A stretch of 64,000 nucleotides of DNA from Candidatus Omnitrophota bacterium. GTDB taxonomy: Bacteria > Omnitrophota > Gorgyraeia > Gygaellales > Profunditerraquicolaceae. The stretch lies in the NCBI GenBank assembly GCA_041650495.1, contig JBAZLB010000004.1, positions 39,281 to 103,280 of the forward strand, given 5' to 3'. Below the pieces are notes generated by a model. It had not been told where the DNA came from and made no database searches. It worked only from the letters and a program-made list of their open reading frames with translations. Below are positions 2,502 through 29,666 of this stretch, piece after piece. The translations under genes were made by a program, and so were the position numbers. How positions within the stretch are numbered: the stretch's first letter is position 1; each line of letters opens with the position of its first letter.

Positions 2502-3458
2502 CTATAGAGAGAGCGCATCGATTATCTTCCTGATCTGTTTTGCCATGACTTTATTAAAACGCGGCCCCGGGTGCCCGTCCAGGGTTCTATCATTAAGCGC
2601 ATCGTTATCAAGCAATTCATAGGCGTTAAAATAGTAGACATTCTTCTGGAAACAATACTGCTTTAACCAAAGGGCATATTTTTCAATACGGTAATCAACA
2701 TCGTAAACGATTACAATTATTTTTGTTTTGTCCTGAGAGATACCCGAAAGAAGCTTATCCAAAGGATACTGTATATATTCCCGGAAGCGGGTTTGTGATA
2801 AATCCCGATATATCCGCGCATATACCTGGCTAAGGGCATACTGAATAATTCTGTTTTTGCTAAAAATCCCGGTAAACGGCCACACAACATAACGATAATC
2901 CGCTTCTATTTGCATTTTTATTTTACGTTCAATAATTGCAGAGGCACAAATATCATTTTTTAAAAAAATCTCAAAAATGATTAACCGGGGCTGGTTTATT
3001 TCGGAAGATTTTAGAAAATACCTACTTACGGAATCACAAACATTATTCCCTGGTAATGAGAGATTTATATAACGCCTTTTTAAATCGCCCTGGTTTAAGA
3101 AATAGGAAATTGTTTCGGCATCACCCGCTCCTACACCGAAAAAGAATGAATCCCCCAATAAAACGACTGGATTCTTATCTTTCTTTGATACTTCAAATAT
3201 ATCCCGTGCACCCAAGGCATTAATATGAGCGTAGAAACGACGGCCAGATGTATCTGTATACGGTATTTCTCCCCCCGGAGAAAACCCCGCCACACAAAAG
3301 TCGTCTTTATTTGGAGTGTAATGAATAGGTTCGATTTTTTTTAAATCGGGAAATCTATATTTTATAAGAAGTTGACATATCAACAGAACCTGGAGTAATA
3401 CACATCCCCCTATGCCTACCAATATAAAAAACCCTATTCTTCTTACAAATGCACTCAT
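2502..3458 (-). CDS. SGNH/GDSL-family hydrolase with N-terminal membrane anchor
   Basis: N-terminal TM helix. Block I is VVLLGDSFFFG and C-terminal block V is LDGHPGPRFNKVMAKQI (DxxH). 318 aa. Confidence 0.6.
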   Translation of the reverse strand: MSAFVRRIGFFILVGIGGCVLLQVLLICQLLIKYRFPDLKKIEPIHYTPNKDDFCVAGFSPGGEIPYTDTSGRRFYAHINALGARDIFEVSKKDKNPVVLLGDSFFFGVGAGDAETISYFLNQGDLKRRYINLSLPGNNVCDSVSRYFLKSSEINQPRLIIFEIFLKNDICASAIIERKIKMQIEADYRYVVWPFTGIFSKNRIIQYALSQVYARIYRDLSQTRFREYIQYPLDKLLSGISQDKTKIIVIVYDVDYRIEKYALWLKQYCFQKNVYYFNAYELLDNDALNDRTLDGHPGPRFNKVMAKQIRKIIDALSL

Positions 3459-3533
3459 TGTACTTGCTAACTCGCTTATTGCTAATCAGCTATTCGATCG
3501 CCATATGGCAGATTTATTTTATTGCCAGGCATG

Positions 3534-5261
3534 TTAACGCAAAAATCTGTAAAGCCCGAACCGGTAGAGATTATCAAGATTTGTTATCAATGTTTGATGA
3601 TTATCGCAATGCTCACAATGTTCATCGTATAATTTAACACCGTTTAAAAAAGTATATCCTTTATTTTCTTTAAGAAATTTTGCTTTTATCCTATACCTGC
3701 GATATTCCCGGGAATTCCAGAGTTCTTTAAAAGACTGCTTGTTCAAATCGCCAACAGTCCTTAAATGACAGCACATACTCACGTCATAGAGGGCCGGTAT
3801 AAGACAAAAATACCATCCTATCGTACATCCCTCTTGAAGAAAAATATCCTTCGACCATGCCCCCGTGTCTTTGTCGTAATGCTCAAGTTGAAACATAATA
3901 TTATCAACGAAATCTATGCCATTCTCCATGAATATTTTAGTCGCAATCGGTAAGTCCTTCTTAATAACTTCTATTTCCCGTTCGCTCAGTTTAAGGGATT
4001 GATTATTATCGTCTAGCCTAATAAGATAGAAGCGGGCAGCATCCGCTCCTATTTCCGCATCAACCTTAGCCATTTCAATAAGTTCGTGATAATTAAGGGC
4101 ATGGATAACATGCGTCATTTTCAGGCGGGGCTCTAATTTACCCTGTTCCTTTCTGATCCGCACCAATGTTTTAAGATTTACTATTATAGTATTAAATGTC
4201 GCCTCGGTGCCGATTGTGGTCACCTGGGCATATGTAGCAGACGTGCCGGATGGAAAGCTGCAATAAATTTCCTTTACCCCCAAATCTATTAATTCCCTTG
4301 ATTCTTTTTCATGAATCAATGAACCGTTTGTAAAAAAAAGTACACCAATATCCTTACTCCGAGCGTATCTAAGCATATCAAAGAATTTATCATAAAGAAG
4401 CGGTTCCCCGTCTCCTTGCAAGATAATACCATCGACCTTAAGCTCTGCAGAATCGTCAATAATGCTTTTAAACTTTTCTAGGCTAAATTTTCGCTCCAAG
4501 AATCCTTCTCTGTGCTGTATAGCTGGGTTATGCACAAAACAATGCCTGCATTGTATATTGCAGCGATGATAAGGATCAAAGACTATTGTCTGCGGCCCTA
4601 TAAAGGCATGCTCGGCGATGACCCCTAATAATCTTACCAGGTCTCTATCTGAAACTTTTTCTCTTTGCATGTGAAACTGAATGATCTGTAAGATTTCAAT
4701 TAACTCCTCATCGCATAAAAATAACTCGATGGAGGCGTTTTCTATTGCCTCCTGTATCCCCCGAATATATTCTATGAAATTGTGGATTATTTTATCAACC
4801 GGAAAGACATTAAAAGACTCCTCCAGAGACCGACAATCAACCCCTTTAAGACGCATACACAGTTTTACCATCTCATTGATACAGAAGAAGTTATGGCGAG
4901 TTACGCCTATCTTAAAAACAACATTTTTATCTAGCACCGCCATTGATTCCAATCGTTTTATTGTCTCATCGAAGGTACCGTCTTTTCCAATTATTCTTTC
5001 ATGCAGTTCATCAAAATGACCAAAGATACATTCATTATCCTGTTTCAACCCGGGATCAAAAGGCAAAAGATTCATTAATATTTCTAACTCGGTGCGATTT
5101 GCCATTATTATATTCATGTATTCATTGAGTCTTTTAGGGTCATTCAGGCGGACAACCACATCATCCAGTCTTTTCAAGATAGTCCGCAGGCTAAGCCTCC
5201 TGGTTCTTATGGATTCTTTACCCCGCACTGTAATCTTTCTCTCCCAAACATTCTTCCTCAT
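3534..5261 (-). CDS. Radical SAM protein, family B (SPASM-like C-terminus) with ~230-aa N-terminal extension
   Basis: CxxxCxxC at HRCNIQCRHCF. The GDGEPLL SAM motif is present. The C-terminal Cys-rich block GCTIGWYFCLIPALYDVSMCCHL...EHCEHCDNHQ matches the paralogs at 21179..22636 and 17294..18502. Confidence 0.75.
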   Translation of the reverse strand: MRKNVWERKITVRGKESIRTRRLSLRTILKRLDDVVVRLNDPKRLNEYMNIIMANRTELEILMNLLPFDPGLKQDNECIFGHFDELHERIIGKDGTFDETIKRLESMAVLDKNVVFKIGVTRHNFFCINEMVKLCMRLKGVDCRSLEESFNVFPVDKIIHNFIEYIRGIQEAIENASIELFLCDEELIEILQIIQFHMQREKVSDRDLVRLLGVIAEHAFIGPQTIVFDPYHRCNIQCRHCFVHNPAIQHREGFLERKFSLEKFKSIIDDSAELKVDGIILQGDGEPLLYDKFFDMLRYARSKDIGVLFFTNGSLIHEKESRELIDLGVKEIYCSFPSGTSATYAQVTTIGTEATFNTIIVNLKTLVRIRKEQGKLEPRLKMTHVIHALNYHELIEMAKVDAEIGADAARFYLIRLDDNNQSLKLSEREIEVIKKDLPIATKIFMENGIDFVDNIMFQLEHYDKDTGAWSKDIFLQEGCTIGWYFCLIPALYDVSMCCHLRTVGDLNKQSFKELWNSREYRRYRIKAKFLKENKGYTFLNGVKLYDEHCEHCDNHQTLITNLDNLYRFGLYRFLR

Positions 5262-7806
5262 AACAACAATTAATAATCTGATGGCAATTTTTATTACATT
5301 TTTTCACTTCTTCCCTGATTTTCTCCGCTGTCTCGGAAAACCATATGTCATAAATATCCCTCTCAAGAACATTCCCGATTGAATCCATCTCTTCGCAGAA
5401 CGTAACATTACCTTTCTCATTGATGCTCAGGAATGAATATCCCATATTGCAGGTGATATGCTTACGGATATATTGATTCGGGTCCGCATAGTACTTTTTA
5501 TAATTCACCAGTTGAGAAACGGGATTGCCTAACTTGTGGTATCCGGACATCTTCATTTCAATTAATTTATCAATGATGTCGTGTAACTGCTGCTTGTCCT
5601 GAGGCCATAACGTTTTACTTCCCGGCCTTTTATACCACCCTGCATCTTTTTCATACCCGCGCGGCTGGATCAAGCCTAAGAAATTTATAAGATTAATCTT
5701 TTTATTCCCTTGGACCCATGTTAAGAGCGGAATAACATCATCCAAATTCTCTTGCAGTATTATCATAAGTAAATTTATTTCTGTTTGCGGGGCATAGCGA
5801 TGCAACAATTCTATTGCCTCCATGACTTTAACATAAGACCCGTCTACGCCCCTTATGAAATCATGCCGCTCCTTATTGAGACTATCTAAAGAAAGCGCGA
5901 TTGTCCGTAACCCCGATTCCCCTATAGATTGCGCCTGCTTTTTATCAATTAAATAGCCATTAGAACATACCGCGGTCAAAAACCCGTTATCATTAGCAAA
6001 TCTAATTAAGTCAGTTAAGCCTTCTTTTAAAAACGGTTCTCCGCCGGCAAAATTTATCTGGCAATGGTTATCGGCTACGCGTTTAAAAGCAAGCAAAAAA
6101 TCTTTCCATTGCCCTGATGTAAGTTCTTCATTGCTATCCTGCTTCCAGATTTGACACATCTTACATCTAAAATTACACCTATATACTATTCCTAATGCAC
6201 AAAAACGCGGCCTTATGATTTCCAGGGCTTCTTGGCGGGATAAATGCTTACTATAAGAACCGGAAGACACGCACGCCAGATCGTAACGGCGCTTCTCCCG
6301 CATCGCTTTATCTAGCTCTCTTTTAAGTTCTTCCCGACGGGGGGCCATCTTTAGGGCTTCCTTCAATTCTCTTATAGCTTCATCAAATTGATGCTGTTTT
6401 AAGAATATGCCGCTTAAGCCGATATACGAATCTATTGATCCGGAGGCTATCTGCCTGAAATCTAAATACAGCTGCTTTGCCTCTTCATACCGATTATATT
6501 GTTTATATATACTCGCTAAGCCGTTCAACGCGCTGATATCTCCGGGATCAATATCCGACATTCTCTTATAGGCTGCTTCAGCTCTATCATAGTCTTTTCT
6601 CTCATAACAAAGTTCCGCTAAACAACCTAACGCTGGCTTACTTCTGCTGTCTATCTTAAGAATATCTTCACATAGCTGTTCTGAGGAATCGTATAGTTTG
6701 TTTTCTTTATAGCAGGCCGCAAGCAGTTCCATTGTTTTTATATCTCCGGGAGAGAGGACTAATATTCTTTCATATAAACCTGCGGCTTTGCCGGGTAGCG
6801 TTTGGCTATAATATAAATCAGCGAGCTGCTTAAGCAATGTTATACAAGCAGGCTCTAAACGTAATCCATGATGATAAAGTGCGATTGCTTTATCGTAACC
6901 GCCGTGTCTCTGATAGGCCTGAGCTAATTTCTCCAGCCATACCAATCTCTCCCCGCCCTTGTTAAAGAACGCCTTAATTAATCTTTCGGCTTCTTTAAGC
7001 CGCTGCTGCTGCAATAAATAATTACCTACTGCAGAGATACCCTCGGTAGTGCTCCTGTCAAGCCTCAACCCTTTGCGATAAACCTTGATGCCTTGGCTTG
7101 TCTTGCCCATTTTCACTAAGGCACCGCCGTGTCTCTGATAGGCCTGAGCTAATTTCTCCAGCCATACCAATCTCTCCCCGCCCTTGTTAAAGAACGCCTT
7201 AATTAATCTTTCGGCTTCTTTAAGCCGCTGCTGCTCTAATAAATAATTACCTACTGTAGAGATACCCTCGGTAGTGCTCCTGTCAAGCCTCAACCCTTTG
7301 CGATAAACCTTGATGCCTTGGCTTGTCTTGCCCATTTTCACTAAGGCACCGGCTAACCCTTTATACACAGGACTTCCTGATGGCATGGTCTTTAATGCCT
7401 TGCGAAACATGTTTTTAGCTTCTTTATATTGCCCAGCCATATCGAGTAAAACCCCTAAATTATACTGGGCCCACCCATGATTTTTGTTTATTAGCAATAT
7501 TTCCTGGCTTAAACGTAGAGAATCGGAATATTGTCCTGTTTGTCTGGAAATATCTGCCAAGCCATACAAGGCTGTTTCGTTTTTCGTATCAAGTGCAATG
7601 GCTTCCTTAAAATACTCTGCGGCCTCTGTATATCTGCTTTGTTCTCTTAAAGTTTGCCCCATAAAAATAAAAACATCGGGATCAGAAGATCCTTTGCTAA
7701 GGATTTCTTTAAAACATTTAACGGCCTCAGTATACTCTCCGGCAAAAAAATGCGACCTACCTCTTGTTTTAAGATCGGAATGGGTTGTTTTGGTTTCTAG
7801 TGGCAT
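5218..7806 (-). CDS. TPR-repeat (~520 aa) fused to family-A radical SAM domain
   Basis: 862 aa. The N-terminal half is TPR-like helical repeats with a duplicated 75-aa segment. The C-terminal half carries FCALGIVYRCNFRCKMCQIW (CxxxCxxC), FAGGEPFL and the terminal motif CNKNCHQIINC shared with the five stand-alone family-A paralogs. Confidence 0.8.
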   Translation of the reverse strand: MPLETKTTHSDLKTRGRSHFFAGEYTEAVKCFKEILSKGSSDPDVFIFMGQTLREQSRYTEAAEYFKEAIALDTKNETALYGLADISRQTGQYSDSLRLSQEILLINKNHGWAQYNLGVLLDMAGQYKEAKNMFRKALKTMPSGSPVYKGLAGALVKMGKTSQGIKVYRKGLRLDRSTTEGISTVGNYLLEQQRLKEAERLIKAFFNKGGERLVWLEKLAQAYQRHGGALVKMGKTSQGIKVYRKGLRLDRSTTEGISAVGNYLLQQQRLKEAERLIKAFFNKGGERLVWLEKLAQAYQRHGGYDKAIALYHHGLRLEPACITLLKQLADLYYSQTLPGKAAGLYERILVLSPGDIKTMELLAACYKENKLYDSSEQLCEDILKIDSRSKPALGCLAELCYERKDYDRAEAAYKRMSDIDPGDISALNGLASIYKQYNRYEEAKQLYLDFRQIASGSIDSYIGLSGIFLKQHQFDEAIRELKEALKMAPRREELKRELDKAMREKRRYDLACVSSGSYSKHLSRQEALEIIRPRFCALGIVYRCNFRCKMCQIWKQDSNEELTSGQWKDFLLAFKRVADNHCQINFAGGEPFLKEGLTDLIRFANDNGFLTAVCSNGYLIDKKQAQSIGESGLRTIALSLDSLNKERHDFIRGVDGSYVKVMEAIELLHRYAPQTEINLLMIILQENLDDVIPLLTWVQGNKKINLINFLGLIQPRGYEKDAGWYKRPGSKTLWPQDKQQLHDIIDKLIEMKMSGYHKLGNPVSQLVNYKKYYADPNQYIRKHITCNMGYSFLSINEKGNVTFCEEMDSIGNVLERDIYDIWFSETAEKIREEVKKCNKNCHQIINCCYEEECLGEKDYSAG
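6901..7350. repeat. Direct tandem duplication, 2 x 225 bp, in-frame, inside the TPR region of the TPR-rSAM gene
   Basis: Sequence 6901-7125 is repeated at 7126-7350 with only about 2 mismatches (ctgcaataaa/ctctaataaa; ctgcagag/ctgtagag). In the protein, ...GGALVKMGKTSQGIKVYRKGLRLDRSTTEGIS.VGNYLL.QQRLKEAERLIKAFFNKGGERLVWLEKLAQAYQRHGG appears twice. Confidence 0.85.
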
Positions 7807-7820
7807 ATAAACAGCCTAAA

Positions 7821-8828
7821 TTAATAAATGTACACTTCTGAAGGGTCAAAATTACAATTGACCATGGATTGACAATTCCGTTTGCACTGCGCTATCTTTT
7901 CCCGTATCATTTCCGCTTTTGAGGAATTCCACACGGTGTTAATATCGTCATATTTAATGTTTCCGATCGGTTCCATGTAAAAACATATCCTTATTTCTCC
8001 CGTAGGAGTTATGTTAATGGCCTGGGTGTCAATATGGCACTTTTTCTGCTTAACAAAGTCATTGGGATTATGAAAATATGCTTTAAATACCTGCAGTTGG
8101 GGCAAAGAATTTCCAAGCTTGTTAAACCCGGATTCTTTCATCTTGATAAGCCCGTTCATAATTTTGTCAACTTTTTTAAGGTCTATAGGCCATAAGGAAC
8201 TATACCGGCTGTCAGTATACCAGTGCAAATCTTCTGGTGTACTAAACGGTTGTGTGATAGCCTGAAATCCCATTCCGTCTATCTTGTCATTCTCCTGTAT
8301 CCACCTGACAATATCCACAAGTTCATCAAGGTTTTCATTAGAAATAACGGTGCATATGCCTATCTTTACATCGCTGCTGTATTTATCCAGAAGCTCGATA
8401 GCCCTCATAACCTTCTGATATGCCCCTCTAACACCGCGGAGAGAATCATGGCGGTCTTCCCTGAGACTGTCTAAAGATATATTCACAGTGGTAACGCCTG
8501 AAGCCGCTATGTTCTCTGCCATTGTCTCATCGATAAGGAAGGCGTTAGTAGCAAGTAACGTAACAAAGCCATGTTTATGGGCATAGTTGATTAATTCCAA
8601 TGTTTCCGCACGTGCCAATGGCTCTCCTCCTGCAAAGTTTATTTGGGATTTATCTTTCATAAGAGAACGTAACGAATCAATAAAATACCTCCAGCGCTCT
8701 ATCGTTGGCTCAAGAGGATCCCGGGCCTTGATATCAGATTTCCACTTATAACACATACGACATCGCAAGAAGCAGCTTTCCAATAACGCTATACAGCAAT
8801 AAACAGGAGCTGATATATTTTTTTGCAT
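7821..8828 (-). CDS. Radical SAM protein, family A (MoaA/twitch-like, ~335 aa)
   Basis: N-terminal LLESCFLRCRMCYKW (CxxxCxxC at residues ~17-24), FAGGEPLA, and C-terminal Cys motif CKRNCQSMVNC. Confidence 0.8.
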   Translation of the reverse strand: MQKNISAPVYCCIALLESCFLRCRMCYKWKSDIKARDPLEPTIERWRYFIDSLRSLMKDKSQINFAGGEPLARAETLELINYAHKHGFVTLLATNAFLIDETMAENIAASGVTTVNISLDSLREDRHDSLRGVRGAYQKVMRAIELLDKYSSDVKIGICTVISNENLDELVDIVRWIQENDKIDGMGFQAITQPFSTPEDLHWYTDSRYSSLWPIDLKKVDKIMNGLIKMKESGFNKLGNSLPQLQVFKAYFHNPNDFVKQKKCHIDTQAINITPTGEIRICFYMEPIGNIKYDDINTVWNSSKAEMIREKIAQCKRNCQSMVNCNFDPSEVYIY

Positions 8829-8881
8829 AGGCCCTACGATACCGTCCTTACCATGCAGTGCATTGATAAATACTAACCTAC

Positions 8882-9877
8882 CTACTCAGAGTCTCCATGG
8901 TAATAACAATTGACAAGAAAATGGCAATTTTTATCACACGCCGCAATACGTCTTTTTACCGTATCTGCTTTCTCTGAAAGCCATATATTCTGCATGGTAT
9001 CATCTTTTATGTTTCCTATGTCCCCCATTTCATCGCATAAGGAAACATGGCCATCCCAAGTGATCCTTATGGCATTGTCACCAAGATGGCACCTGCGTGG
9101 TTTTATGAATCCTTGCGGGTTCATTAAGTATAACTTAAATAATTCGAGCTGATATATCGGATTGCCTATTTTGAAGCCATCATGGTGTGACTGTCTTAAC
9201 GCAATCAACTCATCTATAACAAGGTTTGCCGCATTATTATCACTGGGCCATAAACCGGCGTATTCATCCAGAATATGCCACTCCTCAGGCACATGGGCAT
9301 TAAACGGTTTCTGTATTACCTGAAAGATTACGCCGTCTAACTTAGGATGGTTGTAAACCCATTTTGTGAAATATATTATTTCTGAGATGTTAATACCCAT
9401 GATTATCGTAAGGATATTTATGATAGAATCGGGGCAATAACGGTCAATAAGGTCTATTGCCCGCATAGCCCGATCCCAACAGCCTTGCTTGCCTCTCAGA
9501 TAATCATGCGTATACTTATCAAGGCTATCAAGAGAAATACCGATAGTGTTAACCCCTGCCTGCGATATTTCCCTGACCTTATCCTCATCCAATAAATAGG
9601 CATTGGTGGATAGGCAACTTTTAAATCCTAAGTCTTGACAAATCTTAAGGATCCCCAAAAAATTGTGGTTAAGCAGTGGTTCCCCTCCCCCAAAACTAAC
9701 AAAAAACGGGTCTTCTACAAAATCCCGCAGTTCATATAAGAATTTTTTATAGGCCTTAAGATCAAGCCAGTTTGTTTCATGGAATGAACGGGTATCCTGC
9801 CAGATATGGCACATTTTACACCGCAACATACACTGGTGGGATATCGCTATATCGCAATGTCTTGGCTTATATATCAT
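8882..9877 (-). CDS. Radical SAM protein, family A
   Basis: ISHQCMLRCKMCHIW, FGGGEPLL, C-terminal CDKNCHFLVNC. Its start overlaps the upstream gene stop by 4 nt (ATGA coupling). Confidence 0.8.
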   Translation of the reverse strand: MIYKPRHCDIAISHQCMLRCKMCHIWQDTRSFHETNWLDLKAYKKFLYELRDFVEDPFFVSFGGGEPLLNHNFLGILKICQDLGFKSCLSTNAYLLDEDKVREISQAGVNTIGISLDSLDKYTHDYLRGKQGCWDRAMRAIDLIDRYCPDSIINILTIIMGINISEIIYFTKWVYNHPKLDGVIFQVIQKPFNAHVPEEWHILDEYAGLWPSDNNAANLVIDELIALRQSHHDGFKIGNPIYQLELFKLYLMNPQGFIKPRRCHLGDNAIRITWDGHVSLCDEMGDIGNIKDDTMQNIWLSEKADTVKRRIAACDKNCHFLVNCYYHGDSE

Positions 9878-11364
9878 GGATATAGTTGATTAACGTCAGT
9901 GCGTTCAGGAGGAGCATCCTCTTCAAATATTTCAAGATCTAAACATGCATAGACCGGGATACCTAAATCCTCACAGTATTTCACTGCGGTGGTATACCTT
10001 TTCTTCCTGACCTTGTAGGTATTTGTACCATCCAAGGTCATCCAATCAGTATATCCGCGTCCATGAAACATGTACTTGTATTTTAACGGCTCCGCCCTGA
10101 GAGCTGAACCAACAGGTGCCCCGCAAATATTCATACTGCATACCCTATCAATATAGGCAACATTTCTCTTGATATACGCTAACGTTTCCTGGAAATCTTC
10201 CTCTGTTTCTCCCGGATACCCGACAATCAATGCAATATCGTTTCTTATCCCCGCCTCTTTACTGAACCTAAGAAATCTTTCAGCCTCAAAGGCGGTATAT
10301 CCTTTGCCCATAAGTGATAAGACATGGTCAGAAAAACTTTCAAGGCCCAGCGAGAACTCCGTACAGCCCGCTTTTCTTAATTTCAGGAATAACTGCGCAT
10401 CAATTTCTGGCCTTATTTGTGCCTGTCCATACCACTTAACCTGCAATCCCTCATCTACAATACAATCACAAAGCTCTTCAAGAAACTTCAGGTCCGCATT
10501 AAATGCTAAATCATTAAGCCTAAAACAGCTATTATTATACCGACTCTGGTTTAAAACCATTTCTCTTAAAACATGGCCTGCCTTCCGGCAACGATAAGGA
10601 TGTGACAATATTCTATCGCTGCAGAATGTGCAGTTTCGAGTACATCCCTTGCTAAATATGAGCGGGAGCGTAAAATCACAACACAGCATTCCTTCCGTAT
10701 ATAAAGATAAATCAAACCCCTCAAATGTAGGAAATGGGACTGCATCAAGGTCAGTAGGAAGCATGGACTTAATGCAGACTGCCCTGTCCCCCGCGTGGTC
10801 CTTCCACACTCTAAAGATACCCCGATCGGATAACCGCAACTTCCCTTTATCCCTTAGGCCGTTCAATATCTCCAGTAATGCAAATTCTCCGTCTCCTATG
10901 ACAAAATAATCTACGTATCCTTTCACAAAGTCATTTTTTCTTATCTCGTCAAAAAATGTTGCCGGCCCGCCGATGACGATTATTTTATCAGGGGCTTTAT
11001 TCTTTAAAATCCTAAGGATTTGATTTAAAAACGGTATGGAGTCCATTGTAGCCGAAAACCCGATAACCGGCATATCATATGATGCTATTGTATCGCCCAT
11101 GCCTTCAAACAACGGCATATGCCCGTTGCTGGACCGACCCGCCTTCCACCAATGGCTATCATTACCGTTCCACCCCCTTTGCAAAACTCCCGAGTTATAC
11201 AGCTCAATATTTAAATCGCGCACCTCTACCATTATGCCCCTTGATTTTAAAAAGGTAGCCAGATACGCTATACCCAAAGGCGCCACCCGATGATCCCAGG
11301 GGGGCAATTGGATCAACAAGATACCGGGTAATTCTTGCCTCCTTTTCTTAAACAGATTCAGCAT
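9874..11364 (-). CDS. B12-binding domain radical SAM protein (class B)
   Basis: 496 aa. The N-terminal Rossmann-like B12-binding region (VIGFSATMD...IIVIGGPATF) is followed by the rSAM core FSKGCTRNCTFCSD (CxxxCxxC). Confidence 0.75.
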   Translation of the reverse strand: MLNLFKKRRQELPGILLIQLPPWDHRVAPLGIAYLATFLKSRGIMVEVRDLNIELYNSGVLQRGWNGNDSHWWKAGRSSNGHMPLFEGMGDTIASYDMPVIGFSATMDSIPFLNQILRILKNKAPDKIIVIGGPATFFDEIRKNDFVKGYVDYFVIGDGEFALLEILNGLRDKGKLRLSDRGIFRVWKDHAGDRAVCIKSMLPTDLDAVPFPTFEGFDLSLYTEGMLCCDFTLPLIFSKGCTRNCTFCSDRILSHPYRCRKAGHVLREMVLNQSRYNNSCFRLNDLAFNADLKFLEELCDCIVDEGLQVKWYGQAQIRPEIDAQLFLKLRKAGCTEFSLGLESFSDHVLSLMGKGYTAFEAERFLRFSKEAGIRNDIALIVGYPGETEEDFQETLAYIKRNVAYIDRVCSMNICGAPVGSALRAEPLKYKYMFHGRGYTDWMTLDGTNTYKVRKKRYTTAVKYCEDLGIPVYACLDLEIFEEDAPPERTDVNQLYP

Positions 11365-11373
11365 GTCTTATTA

Positions 11374-12381
11374 CTATGTGACAGGTTCACAAATTTTAGG
11401 GAAATCTTTTTGGAATTCATCAAAACAATTTATCAGGTGGTGGCAATTCTTTGTACAGCCGGCGATATCATTTCTTACCTTACCTGCTTTTTCTGAGTAC
11501 CAAACGTCTATAAGGCGGTCGCTCTTAATGTTGCCTATGCGTTCAAAATCATAACATAAATAGATATCCCCGACGGAACTGACCAAAACGCACCTATCAA
11601 GATTACACTGCCTTCTTTTCAAGAACTTCTTGGGATTTCTGTAATATGACTGAAAGGCCAGCAGTTGGCTAACGGGATTCCCGATCTTAAAGCCTTTGTT
11701 TTTTAGACGGATAAGCTCTGCGATGATCTGTATAGTCCTGGCTGGATTCTTAGGCCAGATAAACCCTAAATCACCATCCCACCAATTATCTTCGGGAAAA
11801 GTATTATTTGGCTGCATCGCTGCCATAAAATTTATCGAACCGATCCTTTTATCCTGATGAGCCCATTCAACCAAATCTAAGATCGTGTCTTGATTAATTT
11901 CATAAAATACGCAACACAGGTTTATATAGAGACCCTCGCAATAGGTATGAAGATAGGCAATGGCATCCATGGCCCTGCGATACACGCCAGTAACTCCCCT
12001 TAAATGATCGTGGACCTCTTCTTTTATACTATCCAGCGATATGCTTATCGACTTTAGGCCTGAGCCTGCTATCTTGCGAGCCATCTCTTCATCAATAAGA
12101 TACCCGTTGGAAGCTATCGAGGTATTAAAGCCCTTATCGACACTAAAACGGATAACATCTAATATCCCGTCAAACATTAACGCCTCCCCGCCTCCAAGAT
12201 CCAATTCAAATGGAAAATCAACCATCTGAGCTAGATCAGAAATACATTGCTTCCAATGTACAAGAGAGGGGGCCTGAGAGTAGTTCTTGACATAAATGTC
12301 ATCTTTCCATTTATAGCACATTTTACATCGCAGCATACATTTGTCGGTAATACCAAAACAACAAAACCCCGGTTTAATCAT
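11374..12381 (-). CDS. Radical SAM protein, family A
   Basis: FCCFGITDKCMLRCKMCYKW, LGGGEALM, C-terminal CTKNCHHLINC. Confidence 0.8.
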   Translation of the reverse strand: MIKPGFCCFGITDKCMLRCKMCYKWKDDIYVKNYSQAPSLVHWKQCISDLAQMVDFPFELDLGGGEALMFDGILDVIRFSVDKGFNTSIASNGYLIDEEMARKIAGSGLKSISISLDSIKEEVHDHLRGVTGVYRRAMDAIAYLHTYCEGLYINLCCVFYEINQDTILDLVEWAHQDKRIGSINFMAAMQPNNTFPEDNWWDGDLGFIWPKNPARTIQIIAELIRLKNKGFKIGNPVSQLLAFQSYYRNPKKFLKRRQCNLDRCVLVSSVGDIYLCYDFERIGNIKSDRLIDVWYSEKAGKVRNDIAGCTKNCHHLINCFDEFQKDFPKICEPVT

Positions 12382-12410
12382 ACTGACCCCCTCCTAAACA
12401 CATAGCCATG

Positions 12411-13457
12411 CTATATGGAGAATGGCAGATCCCCTTCAAAGAAACAATTGAGAAGAAAATGGCAATTCTGCCTGCAGTTTCTCACCGCTTCACGCGCCAG
12501 TTTAGCTTTATGAGAATACCACAAATATTCTATGCTATCTTTCGTTATATTGCCTAATTTATCTTGTTGGAAACAGATAAACACATCACCGACAGAGCTA
12601 ACATGGATCGCCCTGGATAAATTACACTCTGAAATTTTTATAAACCGCTCAGGGCATATAAAATACCTCCTGAAAGCCTTAAGCTGCGACAGATGATTAA
12701 CGATTTTCCATCCCTTTCTTTTAAGCTCTATCAAACGGCCTATCAGATCATAAACCTGTTTTATCTCCTGGGGCCAGAGATGACTGAAATCTTTTTGATA
12801 CCACCTGGAATCCATACCGGTATTATTCGGCTGCATCACTGCCATAAAATAAATCCAGTCCAAGCGGTTATCTCTTTGCACGCGCTCAGTTAATTCCAGG
12901 ATATCCCCGGCACTTAGGCTGCTTATCACACAACAGATTCCTTTTTGCAGCTCAGGACAGTATGTATCTAAATAGTCGACCGCCAGCATAACTCTTTTAT
13001 AAACCCCCTCAACGCCCCTTAAGTAATCATGGGTTGTATCTTTAAAGCTGTCTAAAGATAAATTTATGGTTGTAAGCCCCGATTCGGCTATTGCCTTTGC
13101 AAGCGGCTCGTCAATCAAGTAGGCATTTGTAGCAATATTGGTCTTCAACCCTATGTTACCGGCAAATCTTACTAGTTCTAACAACTCTTCCATTAAAAAA
13201 GGCTCACCCCCGCCGAAATTAACCGTAAAACCACTGCCCGCTAATTTACGGATAGAGGCGATTGCATTTCTCCAGTCAGTAACCGTAGGATGGTTATTTC
13301 TCGGGGGCAACGCTGACACATCATCTTTCCATTTAAAGCACATCCGGCACTTTAAAGTGCACCGTTCAGTTACGCTCAGGCAGCAAAAATTTGGCCTTGT
13401 CTGCTGACCGGGGAGATTTTCTAGCCATTTAACCGTATTTATGAATAACTTTCGCAC
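12411..13457 (-). CDS. Radical SAM protein, family A
   Basis: CCLSVTERCTLKCRMCFKW, FGGGEPFLM, C-terminal CRQNCHFLLNCFFEGD. Confidence 0.8.
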   Translation of the reverse strand: MRKLFINTVKWLENLPGQQTRPNFCCLSVTERCTLKCRMCFKWKDDVSALPPRNNHPTVTDWRNAIASIRKLAGSGFTVNFGGGEPFLMEELLELVRFAGNIGLKTNIATNAYLIDEPLAKAIAESGLTTINLSLDSFKDTTHDYLRGVEGVYKRVMLAVDYLDTYCPELQKGICCVISSLSAGDILELTERVQRDNRLDWIYFMAVMQPNNTGMDSRWYQKDFSHLWPQEIKQVYDLIGRLIELKRKGWKIVNHLSQLKAFRRYFICPERFIKISECNLSRAIHVSSVGDVFICFQQDKLGNITKDSIEYLWYSHKAKLAREAVRNCRQNCHFLLNCFFEGDLPFSI

Positions 13458-13460
13458 GGG

Positions 13461-14456
13461 CTATTCCTTTTGAATACCGGACGGCAACAAATTTCGTTTG
13501 AACATCTCTTTCAGAATTACGTTTGCAGCTAATTCATGCCCCTTCACATTAGGATGCAAGCCGTCTCCTATGCTTAATTCACCTACCGTAACTTTGGCAT
13601 TGAGAAAAGTAGGAGTCAAATCCAGAGAAGTTATATGCAAGTCTCTGATGATTTCGCGTATATAAGCATACCTGGTATTATCCTGTTCATTATACGGATC
13701 TTTCATGTAGGGGAATACCGCAACAAAAAATGATACCCCTCTTTCGGCTAAAAGGTCCCGCATTCGAGTTAATGATTCCTTGACTATCCGATAGCACTTT
13801 TCCTTCTCATCGAAATTTTCCCGAAAATATAGGAAGAAAATGATGCGCCGGTAAAGATAAGAATATTTAAACAACAATGGATTGATAAAACCAGCCGCAT
13901 CGTTTCGCGGCCAATAGACTACCGGCCTTCCCTTGTCCTTAATCACCACTGGAGTTACCTGAAAATCGTTTAAGCAAAATTGAAGAAGGACTAAGTCGGG
14001 CTTAAAATTAATACACCTCTGCTGTAAAAACGCTAATTCCTGCGCCGTATTATACCCCGGGACCCCGCAATTCCATATCTCAATATGCCCTGTTTTATCC
14101 TTTAAGGCATCTTCGATAAATTTCACATAAGTCATACCGCCGCCGCCGGTAATAGAATCACCTAATGCTATGATCCTGAATTCAGAGGCCTTTTTTTCTA
14201 TAGTTCGTTCCCTGTCAAATATGCCCAATGAATTTACTTTATATCCCCCGCTGCCTCTGCGGGGAATTAACTCATACCCCATAGCTCTAGACGCCTTTAT
14301 AAGAGTTGGAAGATCGGCGCTGTCATGTTTCCATTCTTCACTTGAAGTATCAAAAAATGGTTGGTAACCAATAGGCTGCAGTATCCGGGCACCCGCCTCT
14401 ATAAGCAGAAGCGAGAGAAAAACTGATACCACCGACAATGCAATATTTTGTTTCAC
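13461..14456 (-). CDS. SGNH/GDSL-family hydrolase (secreted or membrane-anchored)
   Basis: Signal-like N-terminus, block I IIALGDSITGGGG, block V IGDGLHPNVKGHELAANVI. The stop lies 4 nt before the upstream rSAM start. Confidence 0.65.
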   Translation of the reverse strand: MKQNIALSVVSVFLSLLLIEAGARILQPIGYQPFFDTSSEEWKHDSADLPTLIKASRAMGYELIPRRGSGGYKVNSLGIFDRERTIEKKASEFRIIALGDSITGGGGMTYVKFIEDALKDKTGHIEIWNCGVPGYNTAQELAFLQQRCINFKPDLVLLQFCLNDFQVTPVVIKDKGRPVVYWPRNDAAGFINPLLFKYSYLYRRIIFFLYFRENFDEKEKCYRIVKESLTRMRDLLAERGVSFFVAVFPYMKDPYNEQDNTRYAYIREIIRDLHITSLDLTPTFLNAKVTVGELSIGDGLHPNVKGHELAANVILKEMFKRNLLPSGIQKE

Positions 14457-20981: not shown

Positions 20982-21044
20982 TATGATAAAAAGGCGGTGT
21001 CTATGTTTAACTTTTTGCAGATTCTTTGTGCTTTATCTTATCTT

Positions 21045-21107
21045 TCAACCCACAAGAACCCTATCCGCCACATAATATACTTTAAGCCCCGGTAAAAAGA
21101 GTAACAT
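21045..21107 (-). CDS. Candidate 20-aa small ORF (MLLFLPGLKVYYVADRVLVG) in the only sizeable intergenic gap of the rSAM array
   Basis: ATG preceded by GAGGG at -6 to -10. It lies in the 197-bp gap between the family-B rSAM and the class-B rSAM. There is no Cys and no homolog support. It is a speculative precursor-peptide or leader candidate. Confidence 0.15.
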   Translation of the reverse strand: MLLFLPGLKVYYVADRVLVG

Positions 21108-21178
21108 AAGCCGCCCTCTTTATAATGCTTTTTCCATCTCTGCAATAGTGTTTCTCGCATGGTAAGTATATTTATTTA

Positions 21179-25534: not shown

Positions 25535-26317
25535 TCAGATTTGTTTTAAAGCATCCTTCTCTTTTTTCGTGAATATGTAATGGCCCAGCCATATGCTCGC
25601 CAAGCTAAATCCAAACGCAAACAACCACATAACGCTGTCTCCTTTTGAGCCGTTATAAAGTATAGCGCGATAAAGAAGGGTATAACAGGTAGCTGGATTT
25701 GCAATCATAATAACCTGATGCCCCTTTGAGATACTTTCTAAAGGGTAAAATATGGGGGTCAACCAAAATAAAAACATTAAACCAATATTCAATAACTGCG
25801 CTAAATCCTTATAATAGAGATTACCGATGCTTACCATGAGCGATATGCCCAATGTAAAAACAAAGTGGAGCAGCAGGACGAGCGGCAATAATGCTAAGGA
25901 ATTTATGATTCTGGTATTACATAGAATAAAAACGGGCAAGAGACCTATAAAACCAACTAAAAAATTTACAAAGTTTGCTAAAACCACCGAGAGGGGTATT
26001 GCCTCATTCATAATAACGAACTGATTTAATACGGCACTATTATTCTTAATGGAAACTGCCGCTTCTGATAATGAGTTTGCAAAGAAAGACCAGGCCAAGA
26101 GAGCACTCAATATAAAAAGGGGGAAATTACTTATCCGGGTAGGCATTATTTGTGTGAAAACGAAGTTAATGGCACACATAATAAGCAGGGGATTAAGAAC
26201 TGCCCAAAAAATACCTATGGTAGAGCCAATATATTTATCACTTAAATTACGCTGCACCAGGCTCTTAATTACGTTTTTCTGTGCGCTTATCTTAACAAGT
26301 TTATCTCGTAGAGTCAT
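25535..26317 (-). CDS. ABC-2 type transporter permease (Wzm/TagG-like)
   Basis: 260 aa with 6 predicted TM helices in the ABC-2 arrangement. It lies directly upstream of the Wzt-like ATPase. Confidence 0.7.
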   Translation of the reverse strand: MTLRDKLVKISAQKNVIKSLVQRNLSDKYIGSTIGIFWAVLNPLLIMCAINFVFTQIMPTRISNFPLFILSALLAWSFFANSLSEAAVSIKNNSAVLNQFVIMNEAIPLSVVLANFVNFLVGFIGLLPVFILCNTRIINSLALLPLVLLLHFVFTLGISLMVSIGNLYYKDLAQLLNIGLMFLFWLTPIFYPLESISKGHQVIMIANPATCYTLLYRAILYNGSKGDSVMWLFAFGFSLASIWLGHYIFTKKEKDALKQI

Positions 26318-27015
26318 TGGTAAATATGAAAATACTCCTTTAAAATAGCGGATGCAATATTCTCCGCTAAAAGCCGATTTCCTTTTTTAGTACAATGCCC
26401 GAAGTTTCCTGCGAACATATCAACAAAATACTCTCTGTAGCTTTCTCTTTTTATTGCCTTCTGAAAGATCCCCTCATTATCTACAAAGATGATACCGTCT
26501 TGCTGTCCAGCAAAGATCCCCTTTAATGATGCCAAACTCCGAAGCGGATACTGGACACAAACCAATTGTATTTTATTTTTACTTAATATTCCCCTGATCT
26601 TATGGTAATTGCTATATGTCTTTGTCGTAATATTATGCCTAAAAAGTTTATCAACTTTTTTGGCATATTTACTCGCTACAGTATCCATCCCCATTTCATT
26701 GTATACTACAGCCAGCCCCCCATACGCATAATCTTGCAACGGATCTACCTTGGCCGCCTGGTTAAATGTCTCTATAGCCAAAGTAAACTTCCTTTCGGAA
26801 ACATAGTTTTCGCCTAATACAACATACGCCCAATAGTCTCTCGGATCCAGCTCTATGGCTTGTTTTAGCGACACCTCGGATGCCGGATATTTCCCCTGGT
26901 ATCTATAACACTGCCCCAACAAAAAATACGCTTTGCCGTTTTCCGGATTTAAGGCAACGGCTTTCTTCAATGCCTCTTCGGCGTCTGGATAATTATAATT
27001 ATAGATAAACGCCAT
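26314..27015 (-). CDS. C-terminal part of a split SGNH-TPR protein (TPR repeats plus SGNH block V)
   Basis: TPR-like repeats (AEEALKKAVALNPENGKAYFLLGQCY...). The C-terminus carries FVDMFAGNFGHCTKKGNRLLAENIA, which resembles SGNH block V (DxxH). The frame stays open for ~19 codons upstream of its ATG into the preceding ORF region. Confidence 0.5.
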   Translation of the reverse strand: MAFIYNYNYPDAEEALKKAVALNPENGKAYFLLGQCYRYQGKYPASEVSLKQAIELDPRDYWAYVVLGENYVSERKFTLAIETFNQAAKVDPLQDYAYGGLAVVYNEMGMDTVASKYAKKVDKLFRHNITTKTYSNYHKIRGILSKNKIQLVCVQYPLRSLASLKGIFAGQQDGIIFVDNEGIFQKAIKRESYREYFVDMFAGNFGHCTKKGNRLLAENIASAILKEYFHIYQ

Positions 27016-27068
27016 CGCTAAACCTATATAGGCCTCATCATTCTGAGGGTTTATCTCTATTTTCTTCT

Positions 27069-28121
27069 TTAATAGGCTTCTATTTCAGTAATCTTGCCTC
27101 TGTCCCTATAAATCCGTACCAGCTCAAGATATGGCCGAGGATCTTCCGGGCCACTCTCTATAGCTTTCTGCAGTGGCTCCTCCGCAGGAAAATATCTGCC
27201 TTGGTCGATATAGCATCTCCCCAATAGAAAATATGCCATATCATTTTTCGGATTCAACACAAGAGCCCTTTTAAGGGCATCCTCCGCTTCACGGTATCGA
27301 CCCTGGGAATGATAAAGTTGAGCTAACTCAATATATATTACATCGTAACCCGGCCTCAGTATTAGAGCTTTTTGCAGCAGCCTTTCATATTGGATATAGT
27401 CTCCTAGGTCGCGATATCCCCGCCCTAAACCAATATATTCTTCTGCCTGCTCTTTGTTGACATCTTGTGCGCCGCGCATAGAATCTCCATAACTAAAATA
27501 ATTGCCGCGCTTAATATAACTCTTACGTGGATCACTGAGGCCGGAAATGGGCGGAAACCCGTTTATCTCTTGCACGCTGGGGATCCGACAAGCCAGTTTT
27601 TTCGCCATAACATGCTCCCTCAACAGTATCAATAATTTATAGACCTTCAAAGACTGCAGATAAGAAATTATTTTATCTTCCGATGTTCGTTGGTTCACAA
27701 TATGCCTGGACCTATCGTTGATACCAAGCATCGCCACCACTATATCTGGTTTATACTTCGCAATGTTTTCTTCTAAATGCAAAGCTACATATGAAGTATC
27801 AATATCAGGAATGCCTTTATTAATTACACTAAATCTTAATCCTTTATTATTTTGATTTAATACAACTTCGAGTTGACTGGGGTAGCAACTTTCGCCGCCT
27901 ATCGCATACGCAGTCGTCGATTCCCCAACGCACATAATGCGATATGAGCTTTTCTGCTGCAGAGAAATCCTGTTTCTTCCTTCCTGTAAAGATGAAAATA
28001 TAAAACCTGCTAAACGCATCCCGGCCTCCAGAAAGACAACGCCAAGGCATATCCCTGCGATAATAAGTGCTGTCTTCTGGCAGAGAGATATAGCGGACGT
28101 ATGAGTATTATTACAGCGCAT
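27069..28121 (-). CDS. N-terminal part of a split SGNH-TPR protein (TM anchor, SGNH blocks I-III, TPR repeats)
   Basis: TM helix. Block I is IMCVGESTTAY, block III is VAMLGINDRS, followed by TPR repeats (YIGLGRGYRDLGDYIQYERLLQKALILRP...). It stops at 27069-27071, whereas the downstream TPR/SGNH-block-V ORF is open in another frame from about 27072. This suggests a frameshift (true pseudogene, sequencing error or recoding). Confidence 0.5.
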   Translation of the reverse strand: MRCNNTHTSAISLCQKTALIIAGICLGVVFLEAGMRLAGFIFSSLQEGRNRISLQQKSSYRIMCVGESTTAYAIGGESCYPSQLEVVLNQNNKGLRFSVINKGIPDIDTSYVALHLEENIAKYKPDIVVAMLGINDRSRHIVNQRTSEDKIISYLQSLKVYKLLILLREHVMAKKLACRIPSVQEINGFPPISGLSDPRKSYIKRGNYFSYGDSMRGAQDVNKEQAEEYIGLGRGYRDLGDYIQYERLLQKALILRPGYDVIYIELAQLYHSQGRYREAEDALKRALVLNPKNDMAYFLLGRCYIDQGRYFPAEEPLQKAIESGPEDPRPYLELVRIYRDRGKITEIEAY

Positions 28122-28277: not shown

Positions 28278-29100
28278 CTAGCAGGCAATAAAAGGTAAGT
28301 GGAGCAATATGCTGAATAATGATTCGTTCTTAATAATCGTTCGATAGCGGTTTTTTATTAAATCAGCGTACAATTCATTGCTAAGATATCTGCGTGCATA
28401 CGTTTTATTGATGCCCGACGCCGTCCGGACGCTGGCACCACGCATATGGTACGCCACAGCATCAGGTATATAATAAGCCTTCCAGCCCATATTGTAAGCC
28501 CGCCAAGCGATATCTAAATCCTAATAAAAGAATCGAAAGTCACTATCAAAATATTCAACCCCCATTTTGAGGTCTTCCAGCATCGCTCTACGATAAAAAG
28601 CAACTGCTCCGCTTACTCCGAATATATACCCTGCGCGATTGTAAAGTTGCCCTTTTTTAGTGCCGTAGCCCCTTTCCCGGACTGAACGATACAGATTCAA
28701 CGATAATCCGGTACTATCTAACGTTATCCCGTCAAAACGAAAGACTTTGCCATCCACCATGCCAATCTTTGAGCTAACAGTAAAACCAATAATTGCTTTT
28801 TCAATAAATTTTTCATCTAAAATGACATCGTCATTAAGACAAAGAATAAAGTCCCCGTTACTCTGGCTGATTCCACAATTTAACCCTACGCAGTAGGATT
28901 TTTTCTCGGCATCCGTATACACAGTAACTTCCGGATAATGACGGTGTATGCTTTGGCTGACCTCGGGGTTACATGCATTATCAACAACGATGATTTCGTG
29001 AAAAGAGTGTGTCTGGACACATAATGAGTCTCAACATGATTCCCAGCAACGAAATGCTCCGGAGGTAACAACAATACTTACTTTCCTGTTTGAGCCTTCC
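28278..29100 (-). pseudogene. Disrupted GT2-family glycosyltransferase (three or more frame fragments)
   Basis: Three consecutive minus-strand ORF fragments in different frames. The 5-prime piece starts MTQEGSNRKVSIVVTS..., the middle piece has LNCGISQSNGDFILCLNDDVILD (DxD region), and the 3-prime piece has GWKAYYIPDAVAYHMRGAS (GT2 C-terminal motif). Confidence 0.6.
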
Positions 29101-29666
29101 TGTGTCATAGACTATAAATCTTACGATTATGTTTATTGTAGAAATGTACGCAGGCTGATCTCACTTGAAGAATCGCCTCTTCCATAAGCCCTCTGCGGCT
29201 ACCCCCGGTTTAACATATGGATATCGCTATTATCAGTAATATGCAAAAACCATGCGCTGAGAAACGTTTATGCGTTTCCGCCCCCTTCAGGATATAATCT
29301 GCCGGGAGTTGATGCTTCAGAACAAGATAAAATAAGCAGCAATATTTCAACGGGCTTACGATTATTTTACCACCAAAAACTGCATTATTAAATTAAAAAC
29401 TTTACTGAAAAGACGAGGGCACGGGAAAAATCAGAGGATTTTTACCGGAAGGGCTCAAACCGGTCCGAACTGATGAGAGGGATTATAACTACTTGCAATT
29501 ACACAAGATACATCGCTTTAAAATGAGATTGACAATAAAGAGAAAATTTTGCAGCGATCACGAAACAGGATTGTCCGTCTTGTCAGTATTTTTCTTTCTA
29601 AAATCACGTAGCTCTTTAATATGTAAACAGTAACACATTGTCTACCGCAAAAAACGGACATTTAAC

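Follow-up and report, generated by a model that had tools for sequence, protein, structure and literature searches.

The window analysed here is a stretch of 64,000 nucleotides (nt) from a metagenome-assembled genome (MAG) of Candidatus Omnitrophota. It carries a large gene cluster in which membrane-anchored hydrolases of the SGNH superfamily and membrane proteins of the GT-C glycosyltransferase fold stand among radical S-adenosylmethionine (rSAM) enzymes and an ABC transporter of the Wzm/Wzt type. The same DNA is also present in an assembly of the European Nucleotide Archive (ENA), on a contig of 172 kb, and in a Logan assembly; gene coordinates and strands are given on the window (Table 1). 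Between position 1 and about position 28,900, all sizeable open reading frames (ORFs) are encoded on the minus strand, none of them more than 197 nt from the next, and the flank fetched from beyond the window start (L003, 11196-18418) extends the array by a further ~6 kb, up to an unrelated Rrf2 regulator at the far boundary. The genes upstream of 28,900, which encode a CitMHS transporter, enzymes of trehalose synthesis, a V/A-type ATPase and pyrimidine-synthesis enzymes, are unrelated. Because the flank continues past the window start and the genes upstream of 28,900 are unrelated, the unit was taken to be a single array of ~34 kb with 23 genes, twelve of which encode rSAM enzymes. A sequence-only reading of the window had set the limits of interest at 2502-14456 and placed SGNH genes in one operon with rSAM genes. 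The SGNH and GT-C genes to which it pointed are real, and the proposed placement agrees with their shared direction and short gaps; however, the end at 14456 leaves out the very GT-C gene that was discussed, and the cluster is larger, reaching beyond the window start and including a second GT-C gene.

In the direction of transcription, the array begins with a fragmented family 2 glycosyltransferase (GT2), followed by SGNH3, a Wzm-like permease, a Wzt/TagH-like ATPase of 960 amino acids (aa), an rSAM/SPASM enzyme of 485 aa and a 40-aa ORF. These are followed by an HpnJ-like B12-binding rSAM enzyme (B12-rSAM) of 820 aa, two rSAM/SPASM enzymes of 402 and 348 aa, the GT-C protein MP577 and SGNH2. 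The next genes encode rSAM/SPASM enzymes of 348 and 335 aa, a B12-rSAM of 496 aa, rSAM/SPASM enzymes of 331 and 335 aa, an rSAM/SPASM enzyme of 862 aa with tetratricopeptide repeats (TPRs), an rSAM/SPASM enzyme of 575 aa, SGNH1 and a family 4 glycosyltransferase (GT4) of 393 aa. Across and beyond the window start, the order continues with p712 (712 aa), a second GT4 (351 aa), p519 (519 aa), a third B12-rSAM (477 aa) and a family 4 carbohydrate esterase (CE4) deacetylase. No intergenic terminator-like sites were found on the coding strand between 12 and 30 kb, and a promoter and terminator scan gave no usable operon boundaries. GC content is 0.38-0.44 over the cluster and the trehalose region (1-40000) and 0.46-0.51 in the V/A-ATPase and pyrimidine region (40000-64000), a step that may place the cluster in a variable or acquired segment.

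The three SGNH proteins share several defining features of the superfamily. The block I Ser, the block II Gly and the block III Asn of the oxyanion hole are present in all of them, and the flavodoxin-like alpha/beta/alpha fold matches that of solved SGNH enzymes. SGNH2 carries the complete signature: GDS at residues 99-101, the block II Gly in NCGVPGYN, ND at 163-164 within LND, and D298-x-x-H301 in DGLH. In the family alignment, G99, D100, S101 and H301 (SGNH2 numbering) are invariant. The more divergent SGNH1 gave no meaningful match to sequences of the Protein Data Bank (PDB), and was aligned with a family profile of 22 SGNH2 relatives over 230 columns by hhalign (probability 96.3%, E 1.7e-9). 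Its blocks read GDS, LSLPGNN (with the block II Gly), KND and DGH, so that the Asp stands at -2 from the block V His and not at -3, a variant seen in several other family members. In SGNH3 the blocks read GES, NKGIPD, GIND and GNFGH; its N-terminal half scores 32.7 bits on Pfam Lipase_GDSL_2 and aligns with the family profile at a hhalign probability of 97.6%. The three SGNH domains named in the sequence-only reading are thus borne out by Pfam and hhalign, while the canonical GDS and DxxH motifs that it ascribed to all of them hold for SGNH2 only.

SGNH3 had been regarded as a split gene. It is indeed split in the window, by a change of frame near 27070, but L019, the ENA assembly that represents the same population, has one extra base, a 1-nt gap over 2101 aligned bases, and encodes the protein intact. 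The break thus reflects an indel of the assembly or of the strain and not an ancient pseudogene. An exact protein look-up with the N-terminal ORF found nothing, and it was the neighbouring Wzm that led to the intact gene. In the intact protein, SGNH blocks I-III are followed by an insertion of ~8 TPRs and then by the C-terminal half of the SGNH fold. Three paralogues with this TPR-inserted architecture are encoded in the metagenomic locus L034 (8236-9786, 10840-12393 and 12413-13969).

By Kyte-Doolittle hydropathy, each SGNH protein has exactly one N-terminal hydrophobic segment, in agreement with the transmembrane (TM) or signal segment previously claimed for all of them. In SGNH2 the anchor helix spans residues ~2-26 and ends in a motif, E20...R24, whose Glu and Arg, four residues apart, are nearly invariant in the family; they are also found in SGNH3 (FLEAGMR) and are missing from SGNH1. 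Summed over 24 family sequences, the net charge is +58 before the anchor vs +18 in the 15 residues that follow it. Under the positive-inside rule, such a distribution speaks for an N-in orientation with the catalytic domain outside the cytoplasm, in line with the earlier comparison with systems whose SGNH proteins act at the membrane or in the periplasm. The Glu...Arg pair, at the predicted outer end of the anchor helix and thus at the membrane interface, may orient the enzyme towards, or bind, the head group of a lipid-linked substrate.

Profile searches were informative as to the kind of SGNH enzyme involved. Against the PDB, the SGNH2-family profile matched best a lysophospholipase L1-like enzyme (4e-15), TesA (near 1e-8) and acetyl-xylan esterases (near 1e-7), and Pfam Lipase_GDSL_2 was found in all 23 family members scanned (ALGX in 4, DltD in 1). 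The likeness of SGNH2 to generic SGNH/GDSL esterases such as TesA, lysophospholipase L1 and the CE2/CE3 acetyl-xylan esterases extends to the four-block signature in standard order, and these enzymes are among its best structural matches; the proteins described here differ from them in an N-terminal anchor with the Glu...Arg pair, in beta-hairpins that precede the core, and in a long stretch inserted between blocks III and V, which in SGNH3 is the TPR array. The sequence-only reading had named lipase or thioesterase subfamilies unrelated to glycan modification as an outcome that would speak against its view. The nearest subfamilies did prove to be generic esterases and thioesterases, but also carbohydrate esterases, and are neither glycan-specific nor glycan-unrelated. 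Its analogy to the O-acetylation of peptidoglycan or alginate fared worse. The comparison with AlgJ, PatB and AlgX, proposed at the time as a check, gave matches to the C-terminal part only (E 2e-5 to 1e-3), far behind the generic esterases, and the transferases AlgX, AlgJ, PatB and OatA are not the closest relatives of the SGNH2 family in sequence or structure. Furthermore, among the 23 cluster genes, all of which could be assigned and to which the search was confined, no acyl-donor partner of the membrane-bound O-acyltransferase (MBOAT) or AT3 type was found; the only polytopic proteins are Wzm, MP577 and p519. Some SGNH acyltransferases draw acyl groups directly from membrane phospholipid. 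Because the MBOAT or AT3 acyl-donor route used by AlgX, PatB and OatA is absent, the SGNH proteins are most likely esterases (deacylases), or transacylases with a membrane phospholipid as the source of the acyl group.

The second element, MP577, is identical (100%) to an NCBI protein entry, and the protein itself gave no Pfam, NCBIfam or PDB sequence match, either as a single sequence or as a profile, so that a fold search was needed to place it. An AlphaFold2 (AF2) model built with 16 sequences (pLDDT 76, pTM 0.81) predicts ~12-13 TM helices and a C-terminal alpha/beta domain of ~130 aa. In a Foldseek search of the PDB with this model, the top 31 matches were all GT-C proteins (E 2e-6 to 5e-2), among them ALG12, AglB, ArnT (TMq 0.51-0.52), STT3, PglB, ALG9, DPY19, Pmt4 and AftB, and Pfam PMT_2 was recognised weakly in 10 of the 16 relatives (best 5e-6). 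A GT-C fold is thus supported by the predicted model, as the sequence-only reading had anticipated from the polytopic architecture of the 577-aa protein. In GT-C enzymes, the catalytic acid is located in the first external loop and the active sites are extracytoplasmic. E48 of MP577, invariant in the 16 sequences, lies ~12 residues after TM1 in the first external loop, and is part of a set of family invariants comprising W46-x-E48, SFYPG..G.SR (150-160), CPC (302-304) and KWG (374-376). Helix number, small C-terminal domain and TM-scores to ArnT liken MP577 to the ArnT/PMT_2 enzymes (GT83/GT39), as may the acidic loop residue and the weak PMT_2 matches of its relatives; it differs from them in its missing Pfam and PDB sequence matches, in its own CPC and KWG motifs, and in its distribution, since only 19 relatives were found in 5.8 billion proteins, all of them Omnitrophota-type metagenome sequences and one with a precomputed PMT_2 match. 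The invariant C302-P-C304-T-Q-T lies in a long, low-confidence AlphaFold loop (residues 278-310); it could serve to bind a metal or the substrate, and nothing clearly equivalent is seen in characterised GT-C enzymes. In another Omnitrophota MAG (L014, 4605-11808), a called gene of 8270 residues begins beside an MP577 homologue; giant proteins have been reported for the Omnitrophota phylum (bioRxiv 10.64898/2026.06.07.730766), and this gene fits that report. The second GT-C protein of the cluster, p519, bears the NCBI name glycosyltransferase family 39, and its relatives match both PMT and PMT_2. It showed no significant similarity to the MP577 family by hhalign (1.9%) and was marginally similar by BLASTP to a PMT_2 protein of the locus L012.

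The strongest link between these enzymes and a common product comes from the exporter. The C-terminal 700 aa of the Wzt-like ATPase (22636-24801) consist of three copies of an undescribed domain of ~210-250 aa, and a fourth copy forms the N-terminal ~340 aa of the 820-aa HpnJ-like B12-rSAM (20007-20801), after an aromatic/basic motif. By BLASTP, this N-terminus matches the three Wzt repeats with E values of 6e-14, 6e-6 and 7e-3. Searches of Pfam and of PDB sequences gave no match to the domain. A hidden Markov model of the four copies, applied to related loci, recovered it in Wzt proteins, at the N- or C-terminus of rSAM enzymes, and in stand-alone proteins with several copies, and in a library of 1.84 billion representatives it was found in 563 proteins with 1-8 copies each. 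Ten of these were sampled for diverse lengths: three had no Pfam match, six were rSAM enzymes (rSAM, rSAM/SPASM or B12-rSAM/SPASM), and the seventh with Pfam domains, P0096, combines ABC_tran, five copies of the domain, rSAM and SPASM in a single chain of 1856 aa. Because P0096 fuses exporter ATPase, shared domain and rSAM/SPASM modules, the rSAM chemistry probably acts on the exporter's substrate. As indirect evidence, this fusion argues more strongly than any other that the whole array, SGNH and GT-C proteins included, serves one exported product.

The twelve rSAM enzymes comprise nine SPASM and three B12-dependent proteins. None shows a convincing hydrophobic TM segment by Kyte-Doolittle hydropathy, and rSAM enzymes require reduced iron-sulfur clusters and S-adenosylmethionine; on both grounds they are placed in the cytoplasm. 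The set between SGNH1 and SGNH2 consists of rSAM/SPASM proteins of 575, 335, 331, 335 and 348 aa, the TPR-rSAM/SPASM protein of 862 aa and the B12-rSAM of 496 aa. In the 862-aa protein (5218-7806, minus strand), an N-terminal TPR region of ~500 aa is fused to rSAM/SPASM. Such TPR-rSAM fusions also occur in L020, L026, L029 and L034, and L034 in addition encodes a chain of 1167 aa with three Radical_SAM matches together with SPASM, B12-binding and TPR matches. The 40-aa ORF has a conserved N-terminal part and a variable tail, and is also found as a free ORF in L020 and L026. Its motif is fused to the N-termini of B12-rSAM enzymes (the 820-aa protein of the window, L009 and L020) and to SPASM C-termini (L026 and L029), and to judge from these arrangements it may be a membrane-binding or docking tag. 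The ORF was also considered as a precursor of a ribosomally synthesised and post-translationally modified peptide (RiPP), which was judged unlikely, the motif being fused to the enzymes themselves.

Table 1. Coordinates of the features of the cluster on the 64,000-nt window.
Feature	Position	Strand	Basis or remark
SGNH2	13461..14456	-	331 aa; Pfam Lipase_GDSL_2 60 bits; AF2 model pLDDT 86.6
SGNH1	2502..3458	-	318 aa; divergent signal-anchored paralogue; Pfam 24.7 bits (below gathering cut-off)
SGNH3	26314..28121	-	frameshifted; ORFs 27069-28121 and 26314-27015; intact 602 aa in other assembly
MP577, ArnT/PMT_2-like GT-C-fold membrane protein, 577 aa	14466..16199	-	ends 9 nt before SGNH2 start
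Wzm-like ABC-2 permease	25535..26317	-	Pfam ABC2_membrane
Wzt/TagH-like ABC ATPase, 960 aa	22636..25518	-	Pfam ABC_tran; NCBIfam TagH/Wzt best, below cut-offs
rSAM/SPASM, 485 aa	21179..22636	-	directly after Wzt
Conserved 40-aa ORF (MRETLLQRWKKHYKEGGLCYSFYRGLKYIMWRIGFLWVER)	21038..21160	-	aromatic/basic-rich, W..HY..GG..Y..YRG.KY
HpnJ-like B12-binding rSAM, 820 aa	18519..20981	-	TIGR03471 263 bits, below 577.6-bit cut-off
Two rSAM/SPASM, 348 and 402 aa	16232..18502	-	upstream of GT-C gene
Seven rSAM genes between SGNH1 and SGNH2	3534..13457	-	Pfam Radical_SAM, SPASM, B12-binding, TPR
GT4, 393 aa	1208..2389	-	Pfam; NCBIfam TIGR04063 106 bits; nearest PEP-CTERM/XrtA-type exopolysaccharide GT4s
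p712, N-terminal 398 aa	1..1194	-	runs off window; signal peptide, GH2 sandwich, GH5/GH2-like TIM barrel with WDLWNEP
Fragmented GT2, cluster head	28278..28922	-	133-aa and 70-aa pieces, broken in both assemblies

The association of these genes is conserved in other loci. In L015/L020 and in L017, orthologues of SGNH2 (45-55% identity) keep their slot between the same rSAM orthologues, downstream of Wzm/Wzt, within the collinear order Wzm, Wzt, B12-rSAM, rSAM, rSAM, SGNH, rSAM, rSAM, B12-rSAM, rSAM, TPR-rSAM, with gene-by-gene identities of 43-79%. The diverged versions L026 and L029 have two SGNH-like matches each, and L026 also has Wzm/Wzt. A metagenome scan returned 42 loci with SGNH2 relatives, 22 of them of at least 6 kb, and in half of the latter (11/22) SGNH genes stand beside rSAM homologues, often in several copies. 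For instance, L034 contains four SGNH genes, three of them TPR-inserted, adjoining the TPR-rSAM and triple rSAM fusions, and L039 combines four PMT_2 GT-C genes with a carbamoyltransferase, an SGNH and a B12-rSAM gene. Relatives of MP577 lie among rSAM genes in 4 of the 7 contexts examined. A distant member of the SGNH family, P0037 (Binatia), is encoded in a sugar-modification locus with GT2, GT87 GT-C, DegT, WbqC and formyltransferase genes. The combination of anchored SGNH proteins, PMT_2-type GT-C proteins and rSAM enzymes, often with Wzm/Wzt, is a recurring neighbourhood and not a product of chance, and the functional link between SGNH and rSAM genes suggested by the sequence-only reading gains by these counts and by the slot kept in the collinear clusters. 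On account of the same slot, the idea that the SGNH genes are unrelated housekeeping lipases placed by chance was rejected.

Altogether, these results modestly favour a reading in which the SGNH and GT-C proteins are outward-facing tailoring enzymes of one ABC-transporter-dependent glycoconjugate pathway. From the folds, motifs, gene order and conservation observed, a topology, a substrate, a direction of the acyl reaction and an order of steps can be proposed as follows. The GT4 enzymes would build a lipid-linked glycan or glycolipid at the membrane's cytoplasmic side, which the CE4 enzyme would then N-deacetylate. The twelve soluble rSAM enzymes would modify the product at the inner membrane face, at least the HpnJ-like one being tied to the exporter through the domain shared with Wzt. 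After export by Wzm/Wzt, the two ArnT/PMT-like GT-C enzymes would add sugars from polyprenyl-phosphate donors outside the cytoplasm, and the signal-anchored SGNH serine hydrolases would act on ester bonds in this product at the surface of the membrane; the secreted glycoside hydrolase (GH)-like protein p712 probably trims what has been exported. In hopanoid side-chain synthesis, HpnK and HpnJ carry out amino-sugar chemistry, to which the HpnJ-like B12-rSAM and the deacetylase of this cluster form a parallel. An envelope glycan or glycolipid, the target already suggested by the sequence-only reading, remains the best reading of the substrate, and the neighbouring Wzm/Wzt, two GT4, GT39 GT-C, CE4 and GH2/GH5-like genes and the GT2 pseudogene agree with it.

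The proposed pathway resembles the Wzm/Wzt and TagGH systems of O-antigen and teichoic-acid export in its ABC-2 permease, its ATPase with a C-terminal extension, the GT4 genes in the same array and the tailoring that would follow export. In contrast to these systems, it has twelve rSAM enzymes and a Wzt extension made of three copies of an undescribed domain, and neither an initiating transferase nor a ligase was recognised. A more far-reaching proposal, put forward tentatively and held with somewhat less than even confidence, is that the cluster represents an undescribed class of envelope glycoconjugate pathway, in which the Wzt exporter and the rSAM battery are coupled by a shared ~210-aa domain. 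In such a class, a lipid-linked glycan at the transporter and not yet exported would undergo extensive radical chemistry at C-H bonds (C-methylation, epimerisation, ring contraction or cross-linking), followed outside by glycosylation and by de- or transacylation through membrane-anchored Glu...Arg enzymes, the SGNH and GT-C proteins providing the periplasmic finish. The literature searched contained no description of this cluster type, nor of rSAM tailoring of exported surface glycans on such a scale; a co-mention of Wzt and rSAM in Xanthomonas papers proved unrelated. The parts are new members of known superfamilies (SGNH and GT-C), while their assembly, with its unannotated shared domain, is not described in the literature searched. 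If the glycoconjugate reading is right, it implies new cell-surface polymer chemistry in Omnitrophota and in uncultured bacteria related to them, about whose surface biology and host interactions little is known. The SGNH and GT-C proteins offer two tractable experimental entry points, through esterase assays and glycosyl transfer, and the domain shared by Wzt and rSAM enzymes provides a testable model for the coupling of cytoplasmic tailoring enzymes to an exporter.

Several observations weigh against the glycoconjugate pathway, in which the main uncertainty concerns the nature of the product. SPASM rSAM enzymes are known above all for the maturation of peptides or proteins, and among solved structures the RiPP peptidase CgnD comes nearest to SGNH2, at a sequence identity of 14%. 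The GT-C gene is missing from the nearest collinear clusters, L015/L020 and L017; since these keep SGNH2, the latter is part of the core and the GT-C gene an accessory inserted beside it in the present genome. The cluster contains no initiating phosphoglycosyltransferase of the WecA/WbaP type, no O-acyltransferase that would create esters for removal, and no genes for the supply of polyprenyl-phosphate sugar donors (a GtrB/ArnC-type GT2 or a flippase). A GT2 of 383 aa with a C-terminal hydrophobic region (aa ~287-329) is encoded among the pyrimidine-synthesis genes, ~20 kb from the cluster (49116-50267, minus strand), and could be a candidate polyprenyl-phosphate glycosyltransferase supplying the GT-C donors. 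In addition, the topology is based on hydropathy and charge counts only, and in SGNH1 alone the charge is about equal on both sides of the anchor. In SGNH3, the block I Ser is kept, Glu replaces the block I Asp and no Asp stands at -3 of the block V His.

A product of a different kind, a peptide or protein, would account for some of these features. In that case, the SPASM and B12-dependent rSAM enzymes would modify a peptide or protein in a RiPP-like or maturation pathway, the SGNH proteins would release or trim it as peptidases or esterases in the manner of CgnD, the GT-C enzymes would glycosylate it and the ABC-2 transporter would export it. This is consistent with the presence of nine SPASM enzymes, with TIGR03975, a RiPP C-methyltransferase model, as the best NCBIfam match of the 496-aa B12-rSAM (113 bits, below cut-off), with TPR domains on an rSAM enzyme and on SGNH3, which suggest protein binding, with the glycosylation of proteins by relatives of GT39/PMT and STT3, with CgnD as the best structural match of SGNH2, and with the conserved 40-aa ORF and its variable tail. 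However, a search for conserved small ORFs found no convincing precursor gene, only the 40-aa ORF whose motif is fused to enzymes, and the exporter is of the Wzm/Wzt/TagGH type and shares its operon-like array with GT4, CE4 and GH-like genes. In crocagin biosynthesis, the SGNH-fold protein CgnD is the leader peptidase and is described as an intracellular enzyme (PMC10885120), unlike the membrane-anchored proteins of this cluster, and the crocagin pathway has neither an rSAM battery nor a Wzm/Wzt exporter. A peptide or protein product is considered unlikely. If it were nevertheless true, the cluster would be an unusual glycosylated RiPP-like system with a Wzm/Wzt exporter and membrane-anchored SGNH peptidases.

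A lipid product was likewise judged improbable. Under this explanation, the target remodelled by the cluster would be a lipid of the membrane (hopanoid-like, polyprenyl or ether lipid) or a small glycolipid of such a kind, the SGNH proteins would be lipases, lysophospholipases or lipid acyltransferases, and Wzm/Wzt would move the lipid outward. The HpnJ-like match of the 820-aa B12-rSAM (263 bits), further matches to lipid-modifying rSAM models such as Tes and the ladderane B12 model, the preference of the SGNH2 family profile for lysophospholipase L1/TesA-type enzymes, and the anchor helix with its conserved Glu/Arg at the membrane interface all point in this direction. Against this, every match to a lipid model falls far below the family cut-off, and no genes for squalene-hopene cyclase, polyprenyl or fatty-acid enzymes are present in the cluster, while the secreted GH-like protein, the two GT4, the two GT-C and the multi-repeat Wzt fit a glycan chain better.

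The least probable explanation, in which the SGNH domains would transfer acetyl groups onto an exported polymer as O-acetyltransferases of the AlgX/AlgJ, PatB or OatA type, draws on the few ALGX and DltD matches in the family, on an SGNH-like fold at or outside the membrane acting on exported glycans, and on the membrane anchoring of the proteins within a glycan cluster, but is very unlikely, because these distantly related enzymes need an MBOAT (AlgI/PatA/DltB) or AT3 partner that is absent here, where p519 is a GT39, the window's own SGNH proteins have no ALGX match and score far better with generic esterases, and their catalytic residues follow the standard order of Ser then His, from which AlgX and AlgJ differ.

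Among the remaining genes of the glycoconjugate cluster, the CE4 deacetylase beyond the window start is combined with DUF3473 in an architecture of the XrtA/PEP-CTERM type. The GT2 at the head of the array is likely a pseudogene, since it is broken in both assemblies, and no credible ORF was found in the 744 nt upstream of its pieces (28923-29666). In the adjoining trehalose region, a family 20 (GT20) trehalose-6-phosphate synthase with a weak N-terminal Cache-like match (35025-37262, minus strand) lies beside a trehalose phosphatase, a DUF5752 protein and a TreT-type synthase (including 33530-34201, minus strand), so that two trehalose routes are encoded side by side.

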